Assembly: GCF_040564635.1 (NCBI RefSeq)
Contig: NZ_CP159837.1
Coordinates: 163,801-227,800 of the forward strand
DNA length: 64,000 nt
Origin: Planktothricoides raciborskii GIHE-MW2
GTDB lineage: Bacteria; Cyanobacteriota; Cyanobacteriia; Cyanobacteriales; Laspinemataceae
Direction: 5' to 3'
How positions within the stretch are numbered: position 1 is the first letter of the stretch; each line of letters opens with the position of its first letter. Of this stretch, positions 8,975 through 12,932 are shown in pieces. Both the position numbers and the translations under genes were made by a program. Under the pieces are notes generated by a model. It searched no databases. It was not told the DNA's origin and was given only the letters and a program-made list of their open reading frames with translations.

Positions 8975-10327
8975 ATGTCCAGTTTCCATGACCCCAAATT
9001 TCTCGACGAACTCTACAACGTCTTTGAACCTTTTAATCCATTATCACCGGGAGACCCGCAATATGTAGACTGTCGCGAAGTCCGGGGGGATGGGGATATT
9101 TTAGAGGAATTGGGTAATAAAATTCGTCGATCGCAGCGCATGACTTGTCAACTCTATGCGGGACATCGTGGGGCGGGGAAATCCACGGAACTGCTACGTC
9201 TCAAGCAATATTTGGAACAAAATCAATTTTTAGTAGTATATTTTGCCGCCGACGAAGCGGATATTGATCCGGAAGATGCCGAATATGCGGATATTTTACT
9301 CGCTTGTACTCGCCATATTCTGGAAGACCTGAAAGATATTGCTAGACCAGATCCATTGACAGAATGGTTGCGGGGTCGGTGGCAAGAATTAAAAGACTTA
9401 GCCCTCACCGAGGTCAAGTTTGAAACCTTATCGGTGGAGGGACAAATTGCCCAGTTTGCCAAACTCACCGCTAATTTACGGGCAGTTCCTTCTCTACGGC
9501 GCCAAATTCGCGACAAAATAAATCCTTATACGGTCACGTTGACTCAAGCATTAAATGAGTTTATTGCCGAGGCGAAAAATAACCTGCCCAACGGCTGTGA
9601 AAAACTCGCGGTGATTGTGGATAACTTAGACCGGATGGTTCTCATACCCCAGGACAATGGACGGACTAACCATGAGGAAATTTTTATTGACCGCAGCGAA
9701 CAACTGCGATCGCTAGATTGCCATTTAGTTTATACGGTGCCCATTTCTTTGGTGTATTCCCGTCGGTCAACAGATTTACGCGATATTTATAGCGACCCCC
9801 AAGTATTGCCGATGATTATGGTGCAAAATCCTGATGAGACAACTCATCAACCAGGGGTGGATAAATTAACGGAAATTATTACTAAACGAGTCGAAAGAGT
9901 GGCTAAAGCTGCTTTAGAATCAGAAGTTTTGACGACCGAGATTTTTGAAAGTGCCGAAGTAGTGCAACGGTTATGTTTAATGAGTGGCGGTCATGTTCGC
10001 AATTTACTCCTATTAATTCAAGCAGCAATTAATCGCACGCATCAGCTACCGATTTCTAAGAAAGAAGTCCAACGGGCGATTACCGAAGCGCGAGATACTT
10101 ATCGCCGTACTGTGGAACATGATGAATGGCAACTTTTAGCCCAGGTTCACCGCAGTAAGCAAATTATCAACGAAGACCAAACCCGCAATTTATTATTTAA
10201 TCGCTGTTTGTTGGAATATCGTTATTTAGATAATGATGGAGAGTTGCAACGATGGTCTGATGTTCACCCGTTAATTAAAAATTTGCCCGAATTTAAAGCA
10301 GCAGTGGCAGCGTTGGAAAAATCGTAA
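8975..10327 (+). CDS. AAA_16/STAND-like P-loop NTPase (450 aa) with a C-terminal helical domain
   Basis: Walker A motif LYAGHRGAGKSTELLRL is preceded by YVDCREVRGDGDILEELG (the F.GRE.EL pattern of AAA_16). A Walker B-like motif LAVIVDNLDRM follows. The last 200 aa or so are helical. Confidence 0.6.
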   Translation: MSSFHDPKFLDELYNVFEPFNPLSPGDPQYVDCREVRGDGDILEELGNKIRRSQRMTCQLYAGHRGAGKSTELLRLKQYLEQNQFLVVYFAADEADIDPEDAEYADILLACTRHILEDLKDIARPDPLTEWLRGRWQELKDLALTEVKFETLSVEGQIAQFAKLTANLRAVPSLRRQIRDKINPYTVTLTQALNEFIAEAKNNLPNGCEKLAVIVDNLDRMVLIPQDNGRTNHEEIFIDRSEQLRSLDCHLVYTVPISLVYSRRSTDLRDIYSDPQVLPMIMVQNPDETTHQPGVDKLTEIITKRVERVAKAALESEVLTTEIFESAEVVQRLCLMSGGHVRNLLLLIQAAINRTHQLPISKKEVQRAITEARDTYRRTVEHDEWQLLAQVHRSKQIINEDQTRNLLFNRCLLEYRYLDNDGELQRWSDVHPLIKNLPEFKAAVAALEKS

Positions 10328-10454
10328 AACTATATCTTGTAGGGTGGGCAATAAACCATAATTAGGAGATAAAATTATCCGGTTGATAAAATTTGCCCAC
10401 CATACACTGTGTTCTCTGTGCCTCCGTGGTTCATATTTAATGTAATTCACAACC

Positions 10455-12932
10455 ATGAATCCTGAAAACATCGATTGGGAAGAAAATTTACCACCCCCAA
10501 CCCCAGAAGAAGAAACACAAGCATTAATTAACGCGATTAGAAGATCGCGAGGATTTCGGCTGCTATTTGTCCAATGTTCTCCCCAAGCAGGGCAAAAAGT
10601 GATTGAGAAAGTTAAACAAGAATTACCCCAGAAAAAAATAGCGGTTTTGTCTTTGGATGAAACGCGAGATAAATTATATCCCTTGGTGGAAGCGTATCAA
10701 GACCAAGAAGTGTTATTCATTCGGGGATTAGAACATTCTTTATTAGCTTATGAAACGGAAAAAAGAACCGAAGGCTGGAATACTGAGGAAATTTATTCTT
10801 ATAGTTGGCATGGAGTGCCCCGAATTCTGAGTCACTTAAACCAACAACGGGAACAGTTTAGAGATAATTTTCCCCTCTGCTTCGTTTTTTTGCTGCCTCG
10901 GTTTGCCATTGACTATTTTATTCATCGCTGCCCCGATTTTTATGATTGGCGATCGGGCTGTTTTCAGATATCTTCAGATGATGCGGATTTAAGAGAAACT
11001 TCATCCAATTTATATAATTGGGTATTCAGTTTAAAGCCTCAAGCACGACAACAAGAAATCTTAAATATCCAAGCCCAACTCAAGCATCAGTCTTTACCTT
11101 TACCAAACCAAGCTAATTTATCTCTTCAACAAGCCCTATTACTTCACCTGGAAGACCGCTACAGTGAGGCGATCGAATCTTACGACAAAGCCCTACAAAT
11201 TAAACCCGATGACCAGGCAGCTTGGCACAACCGGGGCATTGCTTTGGGTAAATTACAACGCTACAGTGAAGCCATAGAATCTTACGAGAAAGCCCTAGAA
11301 ATTCAACCCGATTACCATCAAGCTTGGCACAACCGGGGCATTGCTTTGGGTAATTTACAACGCTACAGTGAAGCCATAGAATCTTACGACAAAGCCCTAC
11401 AAATTAAACCCGATGACCAGGCAGCTTGGCACAACCGGGGCATTGCTTTGGGTAAATTACAACGCTACAGTGAAGCCATAGAATCTTACGAGAAAGCCCT
11501 AGAAATTCAACCCGATTACCATCAAGCTTGGAACAACCGGGGCCTTGCTTTGGCTAATTTACAACGCTACAGTGAGGCCATAGAATCTTACGATAAAGCC
11601 CTAGAAATTCAACCTGATGACCATGAAGCTTGGTACAACAGGGGCCTTGCTTTGGATGATTTACAACGCTACAGTGAGGCAATAGAATCTTTCGACAAAG
11701 CCCTAGAAATTCAACCGGATGACCATCAAGCTTGGTACAACCGGGGCAATGCTTTTTATAATTTACAACGCTACAGTGAAGAGATCGAATCTTACGACAA
11801 AGCCCTAGAAATTCAACCCGATTACCATCAAGCTTGGTACAACCGGGGCAATGCTTTGGATAATTTACAACGCTACAGTGAGGCCATAGAATCTTACGAC
11901 AAAGCCCTAGAAATTCAACCCGATTTACATCAAGCTTGGAACAACCGGGGCAATGCTTTGGATGAATTACAACGCTACAGTGAGGCGATCGAATCTTACG
12001 AGAAAGCCCTAGAAATTCAACCCGATTACCATCAAGCTTGGTACAACCGGGGCATTGCTTTGGGTAATTTACAACGCTACAGTGAGGCGATAGAATCTTA
12101 CGACAAAGCCCTAGAAATTCAACCCAATTTCCATGAATCTTGGCACAACCGGGGCTATGCTTTGGGTAATTTACAACGCTACAGTGAGGCCATAGAATCT
12201 TACGACAAAGCCCTAGAAATTCAACCCGATTACCATCAAGCTTGGAACAACCGGGGCATTGCTTTGGGTAATTTACAACGCTACAGTGAAGCCATAGAAT
12301 CTTACGACAAAGCCCTAGAAATTCAACCCGATTACCATCAAGCTTGGTACAACCGGGGCATTGCTTTGGGTAATTTACAACGCTACAGTGAAGCCATAGA
12401 ATCTTACGACAAAGCCCTAGAAATTCAACCCGATTACCATCAAGCTTGGTACAACCGGGGCATTGCTTTGGGTAATTTACAACGCTACAGTGAGGCCATA
12501 GAATCTTATGACAAAGCCCTAGAAATTCTACCCGATGACTATGAAGCTTGGTACAACCGGGGCATTGCTTTGTTTAATTTACAACGCTACAGTGAGGCCA
12601 TAGAATCTTACGACAAAGCCCTAGAAATTCAACCCGATTTCCATGAAGATTGGTACAACCGGGGCATTGCTTTGGGTAATTTACAACGCTACAGTGAGGC
12701 CATAGAATCTTACGACAAAGCCCTAGAAATTAAACCCGATAAGCATGAAGCTTGGTACAATAAAGCTTGTGCTTATGCTTTGCAAGAGAAGCTTGAGTTG
12801 GCAATTAAAAATCTAGAAAAAGCCATTGAATTAAGTCCTGAAGAATATCGAGAAATGGCTCAAAATGACGCAGATTTTGATCGGATTCGGTCTGATGCCT
12901 GGTTTCAGGCATTGTTAATGGGAAATCATTAA
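10455..12932 (+). CDS. TPR-repeat protein (825 aa) with an N-terminal degenerate P-loop-NTPase-like domain and about 18 nearly identical 34-aa TPRs
   Basis: N-terminal FRLLFVQCSPQAGQKVIEKVKQEL resembles LLLYGPPGTGKTTLAKAVAKEL but lacks the GK[ST] residues. TPR unit YSEAIESYDKALEIQPDYHQAWYNRGIALGNLQR is repeated. The gene lies 127 bp downstream of the NTPase on the same strand. Confidence 0.7.
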   Translation: MNPENIDWEENLPPPTPEEETQALINAIRRSRGFRLLFVQCSPQAGQKVIEKVKQELPQKKIAVLSLDETRDKLYPLVEAYQDQEVLFIRGLEHSLLAYETEKRTEGWNTEEIYSYSWHGVPRILSHLNQQREQFRDNFPLCFVFLLPRFAIDYFIHRCPDFYDWRSGCFQISSDDADLRETSSNLYNWVFSLKPQARQQEILNIQAQLKHQSLPLPNQANLSLQQALLLHLEDRYSEAIESYDKALQIKPDDQAAWHNRGIALGKLQRYSEAIESYEKALEIQPDYHQAWHNRGIALGNLQRYSEAIESYDKALQIKPDDQAAWHNRGIALGKLQRYSEAIESYEKALEIQPDYHQAWNNRGLALANLQRYSEAIESYDKALEIQPDDHEAWYNRGLALDDLQRYSEAIESFDKALEIQPDDHQAWYNRGNAFYNLQRYSEEIESYDKALEIQPDYHQAWYNRGNALDNLQRYSEAIESYDKALEIQPDLHQAWNNRGNALDELQRYSEAIESYEKALEIQPDYHQAWYNRGIALGNLQRYSEAIESYDKALEIQPNFHESWHNRGYALGNLQRYSEAIESYDKALEIQPDYHQAWNNRGIALGNLQRYSEAIESYDKALEIQPDYHQAWYNRGIALGNLQRYSEAIESYDKALEIQPDYHQAWYNRGIALGNLQRYSEAIESYDKALEILPDDYEAWYNRGIALFNLQRYSEAIESYDKALEIQPDFHEDWYNRGIALGNLQRYSEAIESYDKALEIKPDKHEAWYNKACAYALQEKLELAIKNLEKAIELSPEEYREMAQNDADFDRIRSDAWFQALLMGNH
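11150..12760. repeat. About 16 tandem 102-bp DNA repeats (near-identical) encoding the TPR array
   Basis: Units such as caacgctacagtgaggccatagaatcttacgacaaagccctagaaattcaacccgattaccatcaagcttggtacaaccggggcattgctttgggtaatttaca recur with only a few substitutions each. Confidence 0.9.

Follow-up and report, generated by a model that had tools for sequence, protein, structure and literature searches.

A widespread cyanobacterial gene pair joins an ORC/Cdc6-type AAA+ ATPase to a TPR protein with a degenerate AAA+ domain: a possible split STAND/NLR-like switch

A stretch of 64,000 nucleotides from the cyanobacterium Planktothricoides raciborskii GIHE-MW2 (contig NZ_CP159837.1, positions 163,801 to 227,800; hereafter the window, to which all coordinates refer) contains two adjacent genes that are the subject of this work. 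Gene 1 (8975..10327, + strand) encodes a 450-residue AAA+ ATPase of the ORC/Cdc6-TnsC-STAND branch, composed of a nucleoside triphosphatase (NTPase) core, a helical insert of ~100 residues, a lid and a winged helix. Gene 2 (10455..12932, +) encodes a protein of 825 residues, in which a degenerate AAA+ domain at the N-terminus (the N-domain) is followed by a linker, 17 tetratricopeptide repeats (TPRs) and a TPR end-cap. Both the coordinates and the 127-bp gap given for this same-strand pair in a first-pass annotation of the DNA were exact, and a scan of the window revealed no terminator-like site in the spacer (10328..10454, +). A promoter-like site is found 5' of gene 1 (8688..8715, +; TTCACG-16-TATAGT, with 9/12 consensus matches and a TG extension), which is a weak candidate called by consensus match only, whereas a terminator-like hairpin with an 8-pair stem, 5 GC pairs and a T-rich tail lies 3' of gene 2 (13228..13247, +). 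Promoter and terminator matches inside the TPR array are repeat artefacts and were disregarded. Gene 1 is 100% identical to a P. raciborskii protein annotated as 'ATP-binding protein', and the whole locus is syntenic with that of Planktothricoides sp. SR001. The two genes form a real operon, which is conserved across cyanobacteria and uncharacterised.

The Walker A motif, or P-loop, of gene 1 (GHRGAGKST, residues 63-71; 9161..9187, +), already described as intact in the first-pass annotation, is invariant from G63 to T71 in alignments of 12 and 20 sequences. An 'F.GRE.EL'-like stretch reported upstream of it corresponds to VRGDGDILEEL (residues 36-46), and the proposed AAA_16 context proved to be a real match, but one that falls short in Pfam (25.9 bits, the cutoff being 32.6; E = 1.6e-5). 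The Walker B strand LAVIVDNLDR (residues 211-220; 9605..9634, +; strand 210-216 in the structural model) carries the family motif D-[NS]-L-D, and its residues D216, N217, L218, D219 and R220 are invariant in both alignments. The catalytic Glu that usually follows the Asp is missing throughout the family, its place being taken by Asn in gene 1. Because this Walker B reads D-N-L-D and not D-E, gene 1 probably hydrolyses ATP slowly, more as a switch than as a motor. Further downstream, the lid motif MSGGHVRNL (residues 336-344; 9980..10006, +) resembles the sensor-2 arginine motif of AAA+ proteins, with S337, G338, G339, R342 and N343 invariant, and aligns weakly with the lid of DNA polymerase III gamma. 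The C-terminal winged helix bears a beta-hairpin (residues 412-434; 10208..10276, +; strands 412-418 and 424-430 in the model) within a motif R-C-x-L-E-Y...W...H-P-L-I, whose invariant residues are R410, C411, E414, Y415, W427 and the closing H431, P432, L433 and I434.

Family searches placed gene 1 close to several P-loop families and inside none of them. In Pfam, ATPase_2 (14.2 bits against 33.2), nSTAND_NTPase5 (14.8 against 34), NPHP3_N (15.5 against 24.8) and the KAP NTPase (PF07693; 18 against 20) all remained below their cutoffs, and neither NACHT (PF05729) nor NB-ARC (PF00931) gave a match at E <= 1. As regards KAP, the insert of gene 1 (residues 107-202) is helical and polar, both in sequence and in the model, unlike the hydrophobic transmembrane helices of that family. 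PADLOC-DB v2 returned only PDC-S20 (E = 2.2e-5), confined to residues 64-220, and NCBIfam gave DS41_1 at 18.6 bits against a cutoff of 370 and otherwise nothing useful. Profile searches against the sequences of the PDB yielded nothing significant for gene 1 or for the N-domain of gene 2, and none of Pfam, NCBIfam and PADLOC has a family that matches this domain. No curated threshold of these three collections was reached except by the TPR repeats, so that the assignment of both genes to a well-annotated family of known function, which would have refuted the first-pass annotation, did not come about. Source databases do list PF13191 (AAA_16) for some orthologues of gene 1. The name 'pilus assembly protein PilB', given to one orthologue by one source and supported by nothing else, was taken as annotation noise.

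The AlphaFold2 model of gene 1 is confident (predicted local distance difference test, pLDDT, 85; predicted template-modelling score, pTM, 0.83) and displays the three parts of an AAA+ fold, that is an alpha/beta core, a helical lid and a hairpin-bearing winged helix, with the ~100-residue helical insert between strands 2 and 3 of the core. Its best structural matches were Cdc6 (score 15.0), TnsC of Tn7 (14.8) and the archaeal Walker-type ATPase PABY2304 (14.0), followed by SSO1545 (12.8), CED-4 (12.3), BrxC (12.2) and plant NLRs (11-12); MuB and IstB were also among them. On the basis of this fold and these matches, gene 1 is seen as a nucleotide-binding module of the oligomerisation type to which neither sensor nor effector is attached.

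The N-domain of gene 2 (residues 1-175; 10455..10979, +) was likewise modelled with confidence (pLDDT 82.6, pTM 0.77) as a five-stranded alpha/beta domain with the core topology of AAA+ proteins (strands 35-40, 62-66, 86-90, 142-147 and 168-171). It matched TnsC (9.6), a Drosophila ORC subunit (7jgr_C, 9.1) and archaeal Cdc6/Orc1 (2qby, 8.9), and with lower scores Pex1 (8.8), dynein (8.6), Lon (8.6) and RFC (about 8); the sequence identity of gene 1 and of the N-domain to their ORC/Cdc6-type matches is 10-16%. At the P-loop position (FRLLFVQCSPQAGQKVIEKVKQEL, residues 34-57; 10554..10625, +) strand 1 enters helix 1 without a GxxxxGK[ST] motif, the family consensus being C[ST]PxEGExLI with no conserved Gly-Lys, and the Walker B position after strand 3 reads GLExS. 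Both Walker motifs are absent from the family consensus, and the domain is called degenerate for this reason. The initial description of the N-domain as a degenerate P-loop fold that had lost GK[ST] is borne out by the predicted structure, despite the lack of any detectable sequence link with gene 1 (hhalign probability 0.4%). The residues best conserved in the family are R132, R136, R158, D161, F162, D164 and W165, the last five of them invariant within the most conserved motif (HRCPDFYDWRSG, residues 157-168; 10923..10958, +), which follows helix 4 and includes RAPDFFDWRSG. This region may constitute a contact surface, and R158 is a candidate trans-acting arginine.

The family defined by this domain is large. 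A profile search that used no word index retrieved 1624 representatives of clusters at 50% identity (E <= 1e-3), of which 238 reached E <= 1e-30, whereas a word-indexed protein search gave just 21 relatives because of its limited sensitivity. Family members start with the consensus M..L.DWDEDLP, and of the 150 matches listed nearly all have the domain start no more than ~50 residues into the chain.

Since Cdc6/ORC and TnsC are the best structural matches of both proteins, and MuB and IstB accompany them, a pair of the DNA loader or initiator kind has to be weighed. In such a pair, gene 1 would bind DNA through its C-terminal winged helix with the conserved hairpin and oligomerise on it, like Cdc6/ORC, TnsC, MuB or IstB, and the N-domain-TPR protein would be a targeting or regulatory partner, for instance in replication, segregation or the control of mobile elements. 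However, STAND NTPases share the same succession of NTPase, lid and winged helix without binding DNA, no transposase, integrase or replication gene was consistently adjacent in the loci examined, and the NLR-type fusions of the partner protein, described below, point to signalling. We hold this explanation for quite improbable.

The remainder of gene 2 is made of repeats. Residues ~220-797 matched Pfam TPR_1 above threshold (589 bits) in 17 stretches, and a manual count gave 16 units in a 34-residue register plus one capping repeat, which corrects a previous figure of about 18 TPRs. At the DNA level the array spans 11112..12845 (+), with a core of 15.7 copies of a 102-bp unit that are 92% alike, and is closed by a C-terminal cap (YREMAQNDADFDRIRSDAWFQALL; 12846..12917, +) that belongs to a 'TPR end-of-group' domain (NCBIfam NF047558, residues 766-821) kept at the C-terminus of most orthologues. 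PADLOC-DB v2 gave generic matches only for this region. When the repeats of the window are compared with one another, positions 1, 2, 5, 9, 12, 13 and 34 account for 47 nonsynonymous and 0 synonymous differences, and positions 16-24 and 26-28, which make up most of helix B, are near-invariant. The same pattern was found in 14 orthologues, most strongly at positions 5, 9, 12, 13 and 34. In TPR proteins, helix-A positions 2, 5, 9, 12 and 13 look towards the concave side, where ligands bind. High internal conservation of repeats together with variable sites on the concave face has been described for the TPR, ANK and WD arrays of fungal NLRs (PMC4986451). The number of repeats is also variable, from ~4 to more than 20 among orthologues, and partners of the gene 2 type range from 360 to 1215 residues because of this number and, in a few cases, of added C-terminal domains.

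Comparison of the window with the sister strain SR001 showed that the pair changes faster than its surroundings. The flanking genes ahcY (1/1278 nucleotides, 1 nonsynonymous), mnmG (12/1908, all synonymous) and the next open reading frame (ORF), orf429 (0/1290), show few differences or none. In gene 1 we find 28/1353 differing nucleotides, with 12 nonsynonymous and 15 synonymous codon changes; in the N-domain and linker, 15/732 with 6 nonsynonymous and 7 synonymous; and in the second TPR, 19/105 with 13 nonsynonymous and 2 synonymous. In this one strain pair, the module is a local hot spot of divergence relative to its flanks. The spacer between gene 2 and mnmG (12933-13614 in the window, 6839-8167 in the SR001 locus L091) differs as well between the two Planktothricoides strains, and 64 bp of it (13300-13363 in the window) align with SR001 at two overlapping places, which points to a probable duplication there.

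A scan of species-representative genomes detected at least 590 relatives of gene 1, and the best 79 loci, essentially all of them from cyanobacteria, were examined. An N-domain gene lies directly downstream and on the same strand in about 75 of the 79, the exceptions being two contig ends and two variant loci, and this adjacency is not a matter of chance because it recurs in so many independent genome loci. The N-domain gene often starts 3 nucleotides past the last aligned residue of gene 1, the 127-bp spacer of the window being absent in most other genomes. Moreover, the pairwise distances of gene 1 and of the N-domain are correlated (r = 0.83, 71 loci), as expected for co-inherited partners and consistent with co-evolution. 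The pair is therefore co-conserved in other genomes, a point on which the first-pass annotation had staked its interpretation. Genomes with several paralogous copies occur. Clustering of all flanking ORFs disclosed no universal third gene but only synteny with a radical SAM gene and hflX that is restricted to certain lineages, and no relatives were found on viral contigs.

Two of the loci deserve separate mention. In a metagenome-assembled genome of Nostoc sp. P10324 (variant locus L047, 3132-7398), a MoxR-like AAA gene (AAA_5) and a CoxE-type vWA gene are followed by a gene 1-like protein that has an extra helical N-terminal region of 270 residues, with no match to a Pfam family, and no N-domain partner, a layout reminiscent of the ternary MoxR-vWA systems described by Kaur et al. 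(2020). In a 7.6-kb scaffold assigned to Prochloron didemni (L005), the sequences of gene 1 and N-domain share 83% identity with those of Planktothricoides, by far the closest among other taxa, which suggests either horizontal transfer or a mis-binned scaffold.

The wider family of the module is informative about the company kept by the N-domain. Paralogues of gene 1 with 27-37% identity are encoded on cyanobacterial plasmids and are again followed by a protein starting with an N-domain, recognisable by hidden Markov model with E = 5e-14 and 5e-10. One of these partners, from plasmid pMB06 of Acaryochloris, has 1290 residues and carries nSTAND1 and WD40 modules further along the chain (N-domain...nSTAND1-WD40), and the other, from Nostoc UHCC 0302, reads N-domain-TPR-nSTAND1-WD40 along 1838 residues. 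In Rivularia (L060) N-domain, TPR, NACHT and HEAT are joined in a single chain, and in Moorena (L003) an N-domain-TPR protein of 360 residues is followed by a separate NNH2-NACHT-HEAT gene. Other architectures are N-domain-TPR-CHAT (P0266) and N-domain-TPR followed by a periplasmic-binding-protein domain. Given the fusions to NACHT-HEAT, nSTAND1-WD40 and CHAT, the N-domain occupies the place of the signalling or adaptor domain of NLRs, with gene 1 as its constant companion. Five loci of Anabaena and other Nostocales (L021, L025, L032, L036 and L039) present three genes in a row, namely N-domain-TPR (~525 residues), gene 1 and a stand-alone N-domain (~190-210 residues), and one ATPase may therefore serve two N-domain proteins.

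The window itself holds a second, truncated paralogue of gene 1 (38619..39542, +; 307 residues) with an intact Walker A, GHIGCGKST, and Walker B VVIVDSLDK (D-S-L-D), but without an intact partner. Its identity amounts to 35% with gene 1 and, over residues 1-300, to 52-54% with the plasmid-type gene 1-like proteins of loci L088 and L089, a type that pairs elsewhere with giant N-domain-nSTAND1-WD40 proteins. An ORF of 86 residues that follows it (39535-39795) has sub-threshold TPR matches, and the region is low in GC (0.376) and adjoins mutL. The segment 38619-39795 looks like a decayed second module, and copies of the module are therefore both gained and lost.

The reading that we favour is that of a split, ATP-dependent sensor switch of the STAND/NLR kind, built through a putative contact between an active and an inactive AAA+ domain, and we give it a probability of roughly 45%. 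Gene 1 would be the nucleotide-binding half, an ORC/Cdc6-type AAA+ module of NTPase, lid and winged helix that binds ATP. Gene 2 would provide sensing and coupling, the helix-A face of its TPRs, which alone varies between repeats, being the putative binding site of a protein or peptide ligand. The dead N-domain might dock side by side on gene 1, in the manner of the inactive subunits of ORC-Cdc6 and clamp loaders, and could complete or gate the ATP site of gene 1, for instance by means of the invariant R158 or of the RAPDFFDWRSG motif. Binding of the ligand would then shift the oligomeric or nucleotide state of the complex. The output might be exerted by gene 1 itself, through oligomerisation or winged-helix contacts, and in the relatives by whichever of NACHT, nSTAND1 and CHAT is fused to the N-domain-TPR unit. 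The most likely role would be surveillance or conflict, that is, the sensing of non-self or stress, as enriched in multicellular bacteria, and it is suggested by the fusions to NACHT, nSTAND1 and CHAT together with the turnover of paralogues and the fast change of the TPRs.

In favour of such a switch speak the AAA+ core of the N-domain with its lost Walker motifs, the linkage of the two genes, the NLR-type fusions, the variable face of the TPRs, the local divergence and the several copies per genome; the same pairing is also kept in the distant plasmid paralogues. Folds, state of the motifs, co-conservation, fusions and variability of the repeats are shown by the data, and the physical contact, the part of R158, ligand sensing, output and biological role are inferred. 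Of the two options advanced in the first-pass annotation, that of an active/inactive NTPase pair held in every test run, gene 1 being modelled as an AAA+ ATPase of the ORC/Cdc6-STAND type, and that of a STAND NTPase split from its TPR sensor gains support from the natural fusions of N-domain-TPR units to NACHT-HEAT, nSTAND1-WD40 and CHAT. A further-reaching proposal, possible but more doubtful than the switch itself, is that the N-domain represents an undescribed class of NLR/STAND signalling adaptor, which would template or gate the assembly of a dedicated ORC/Cdc6-like ATPase (gene 1) in place of making death-fold, TIR or amyloid contacts. The pair of the window would then be the minimal, two-gene form of a widespread cyanobacterial surveillance system, in whose larger relatives this adaptor is attached to NACHT-HEAT, nSTAND1-WD40 or CHAT modules.

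Several observations weigh against a sensor switch. The proposed contact of gene 1 with the N-domain is drawn from models of single chains, the pair of the window contains no recognisable effector, and PADLOC matched no system, the P-loop-limited PDC-S20 being its only and weak return. Gene 1 maintains ~65% identity from Pseudanabaena to Nostoc, an unusual conservation for an immune gene. The divergence data come from one strain pair, in which the SR001 assembly has runs of N in the TPR array, and homogeneous TPR arrays of variable number are common in cyanobacterial proteins generally. Moreover, a stable housekeeping synteny surrounds the pair in several lineages. Crinalium and Cylindrospermum share the order psbA, radical SAM gene, one or two other genes, the pair and hflX; 23 loci have a radical SAM gene upstream of the pair, 16 loci have hflX on the downstream side, and in Microcoleus the pair stands among signalling and housekeeping genes. 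The typical accessory-island context that had been read from the neighbouring toxin-antitoxin remnants is, in view of Crinalium and Cylindrospermum, not general.

These data on synteny, on the Microcoleus context and on identity across cyanobacterial orders, together with the lack of an effector domain in the window pair and of viral or PADLOC matches, would also fit a housekeeping function. Gene 1 would in that case be a chaperone-like AAA+ ATPase and the TPR protein a substrate adaptor or scaffold for a conserved cyanobacterial complex such as a photosystem, the ribosome or machinery of the cell envelope, with no sensing of foreign or variable ligands. It is difficult to reconcile with this idea that the number of TPRs and the residues of their helix-A face change fast even between near-identical strains, that several paralogous copies exist per genome and decay, that the N-domain-TPR unit is fused to the conflict-type modules NACHT, nSTAND1 and CHAT, and that the Walker B of gene 1 is without the catalytic Glu that a remodelling motor should have. 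We judge a housekeeping pair unlikely, although less so than a DNA loader.

With regard to the rest of the window, a gene for a Nif11-domain peptide of 77 residues, a possible precursor of a ribosomally synthesised and post-translationally modified peptide, is located to the left of the pair (6994..7227, +), and mnmG is its right-hand neighbour. The toxin-antitoxin remnant cluster announced beside the pair is confirmed only as far as an orphan Phd/YefM antitoxin is concerned (8366..8557, - strand; E = 2e-9), next to which no toxin could be recognised; for the small ORFs at 7614-8059 Pfam returned no match. Two regions at 17813-18142 and 41603-41891 have similar translations rich in Arg, Glu and Lys (…KERREKRGENIF…PLSYASSFL…), are linked by blastn through the sister-strain locus L091 and look like a dispersed repeat element, one copy of which seems to lengthen the mutL ORF at its annotated 5' end. 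Finally, a protein of 1813 residues (48326-53767, +) combines Ser/Thr kinase, AAA_16 (143 bits), GAF, HisKA and HATPase_c domains, and is a large cyanobacterial signalling kinase with a STAND-like NTPase of its own.

If the split switch is true, it would represent a new wiring in bacterial NLR-like systems, in which an inactive AAA+ domain acts as the adaptor between a sensor of hypervariable repeats and an active ATPase on another chain; if the housekeeping alternative is true, the pair would mark a conserved process of the cyanobacterial cell so far undescribed. The N-domain defines a sizeable domain family for which neither Pfam nor NCBIfam has a model, and, under the switch model, a testable role would fall to an operon that hundreds of cyanobacterial species carry, bloom formers, symbionts and filamentous model strains among them. 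In addition, a protein of 450 residues and a domain of 175 make a small and tractable pair to study how a dead AAA+ domain controls live subunits.

Among the closest known systems are the STAND/NLR NTPases such as MalT, AfsR, Apaf-1/CED-4, plant NLRs, bacterial Avs and NACHT proteins, where a P-loop NTPase, lid and winged helix are coupled to a sensor made of TPR, WD40 or HEAT repeats. The homogeneous sensor repeats with hypervariable positions on one face recall the fungal NLRs (PMC4986451), and the N-domain-TPR unit of the partner does occur fused to NACHT and nSTAND1. In contrast to these proteins, NTPase and sensor are separate polypeptides in the window, the sensor protein bears a dead AAA+ domain of its own, and the pair has no effector domain. 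Gene 1 moreover has no NACHT or NB-ARC match in Pfam and stays below threshold for AAA_16 and nSTAND5, and its lid holds a sensor-2-like arginine motif, GGHVRN, in place of the GxP of STAND proteins. The ATPase_2 family (PF01637; PABY2304, 2qen, and SSO1545, 2fna) and AAA_16 are weakly matched by gene 1 in Pfam, but below their thresholds; gene 1 further departs from them in its ~100-residue helical insert between strands 2 and 3, and these families have no known obligatory partner with a dead AAA+ domain.

In ORC/Cdc6 and the clamp loaders, dead AAA+ subunits assemble beside active ones and contribute structural or arginine-finger residues. These complexes provide the best structural matches of both proteins and share the C-terminal winged helix of gene 1. 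They differ in that the window pair has no replication context and its dead partner is fused to a long TPR array, and the comparison is made at 10-16% identity with a pair known from its sequence and from single-chain models.

A further parallel is offered by the TPR protein All4981 of Anabaena sp. PCC 7120, which forms filaments and in two-hybrid assays binds All4982, the product of the co-transcribed gene upstream (PMC7002697). The likeness was drawn from the published description and from 12 primer-deduced residues. The ATGA overlap of all4981 with all4982 (PMC7002697) is similar to what abutting aligned gene ends suggest for the pair in many Nostoc loci, and with co-transcription and binding of the upstream product it parallels the layout of the window. 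The same paper gives a reverse transcription PCR product of ~1800 bp that spans all4983 to all4981 and places TPR3-4 at nucleotides 735-975 of all4981 (PMC7002697). In our reading, the former would leave room for an upstream gene of roughly the size of gene 1, and the latter would imply a non-TPR region at the N-terminus. On this model the pair would be a cytoskeleton-like TPR polymer with an ATPase as its regulator. Nevertheless, the N-terminus deduced from the published primers (MNSELFQKLAKA, 12 residues) does not fit the start consensus of the N-domain, M..L.DWDEDLP, and is absent from all fetched loci, while a peptide word search, a scan of metagenomes with the primers and the supplement of the paper returned nothing matching. 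The resemblance may be a coincidence, and of all the explanations discussed we find this one the least probable.

Also comparable are the iSTAND ternary systems of Kaur, Burroughs, Iyer and Aravind, where a catalytically inactive STAND-type domain is the constant component and is coupled to an active AAA+ ATPase (eLife 2020, PMC7159879). Such systems are enriched in cyanobacteria and multicellular bacteria, comprise superstructure-forming repeats and have caspase-like, TIR or NACHT partners; their active partner is a MoxR ATPase with a vWA co-chaperone (PMC7159879). The pair described here, compared by description, coincides with them in uniting an inactive domain and an active AAA+ ATPase, in its repeats and in its cyanobacterial distribution, and in the relative L047 the gene 1-like protein lies just downstream of the MoxR-like and CoxE-type vWA genes. 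It deviates from them in that no MoxR or vWA genes are adjacent in the window or in the loci examined for gene content, with the only exception of this variant locus, and in that the inactive domain of gene 2 is N-terminal, measures ~175 residues and is not recognised by Pfam. The pair belongs to the already recognised conceptual family of NLR-like conflict systems of multicellular bacteria, within which its pairing of an active with an inactive AAA+ domain is unusual.

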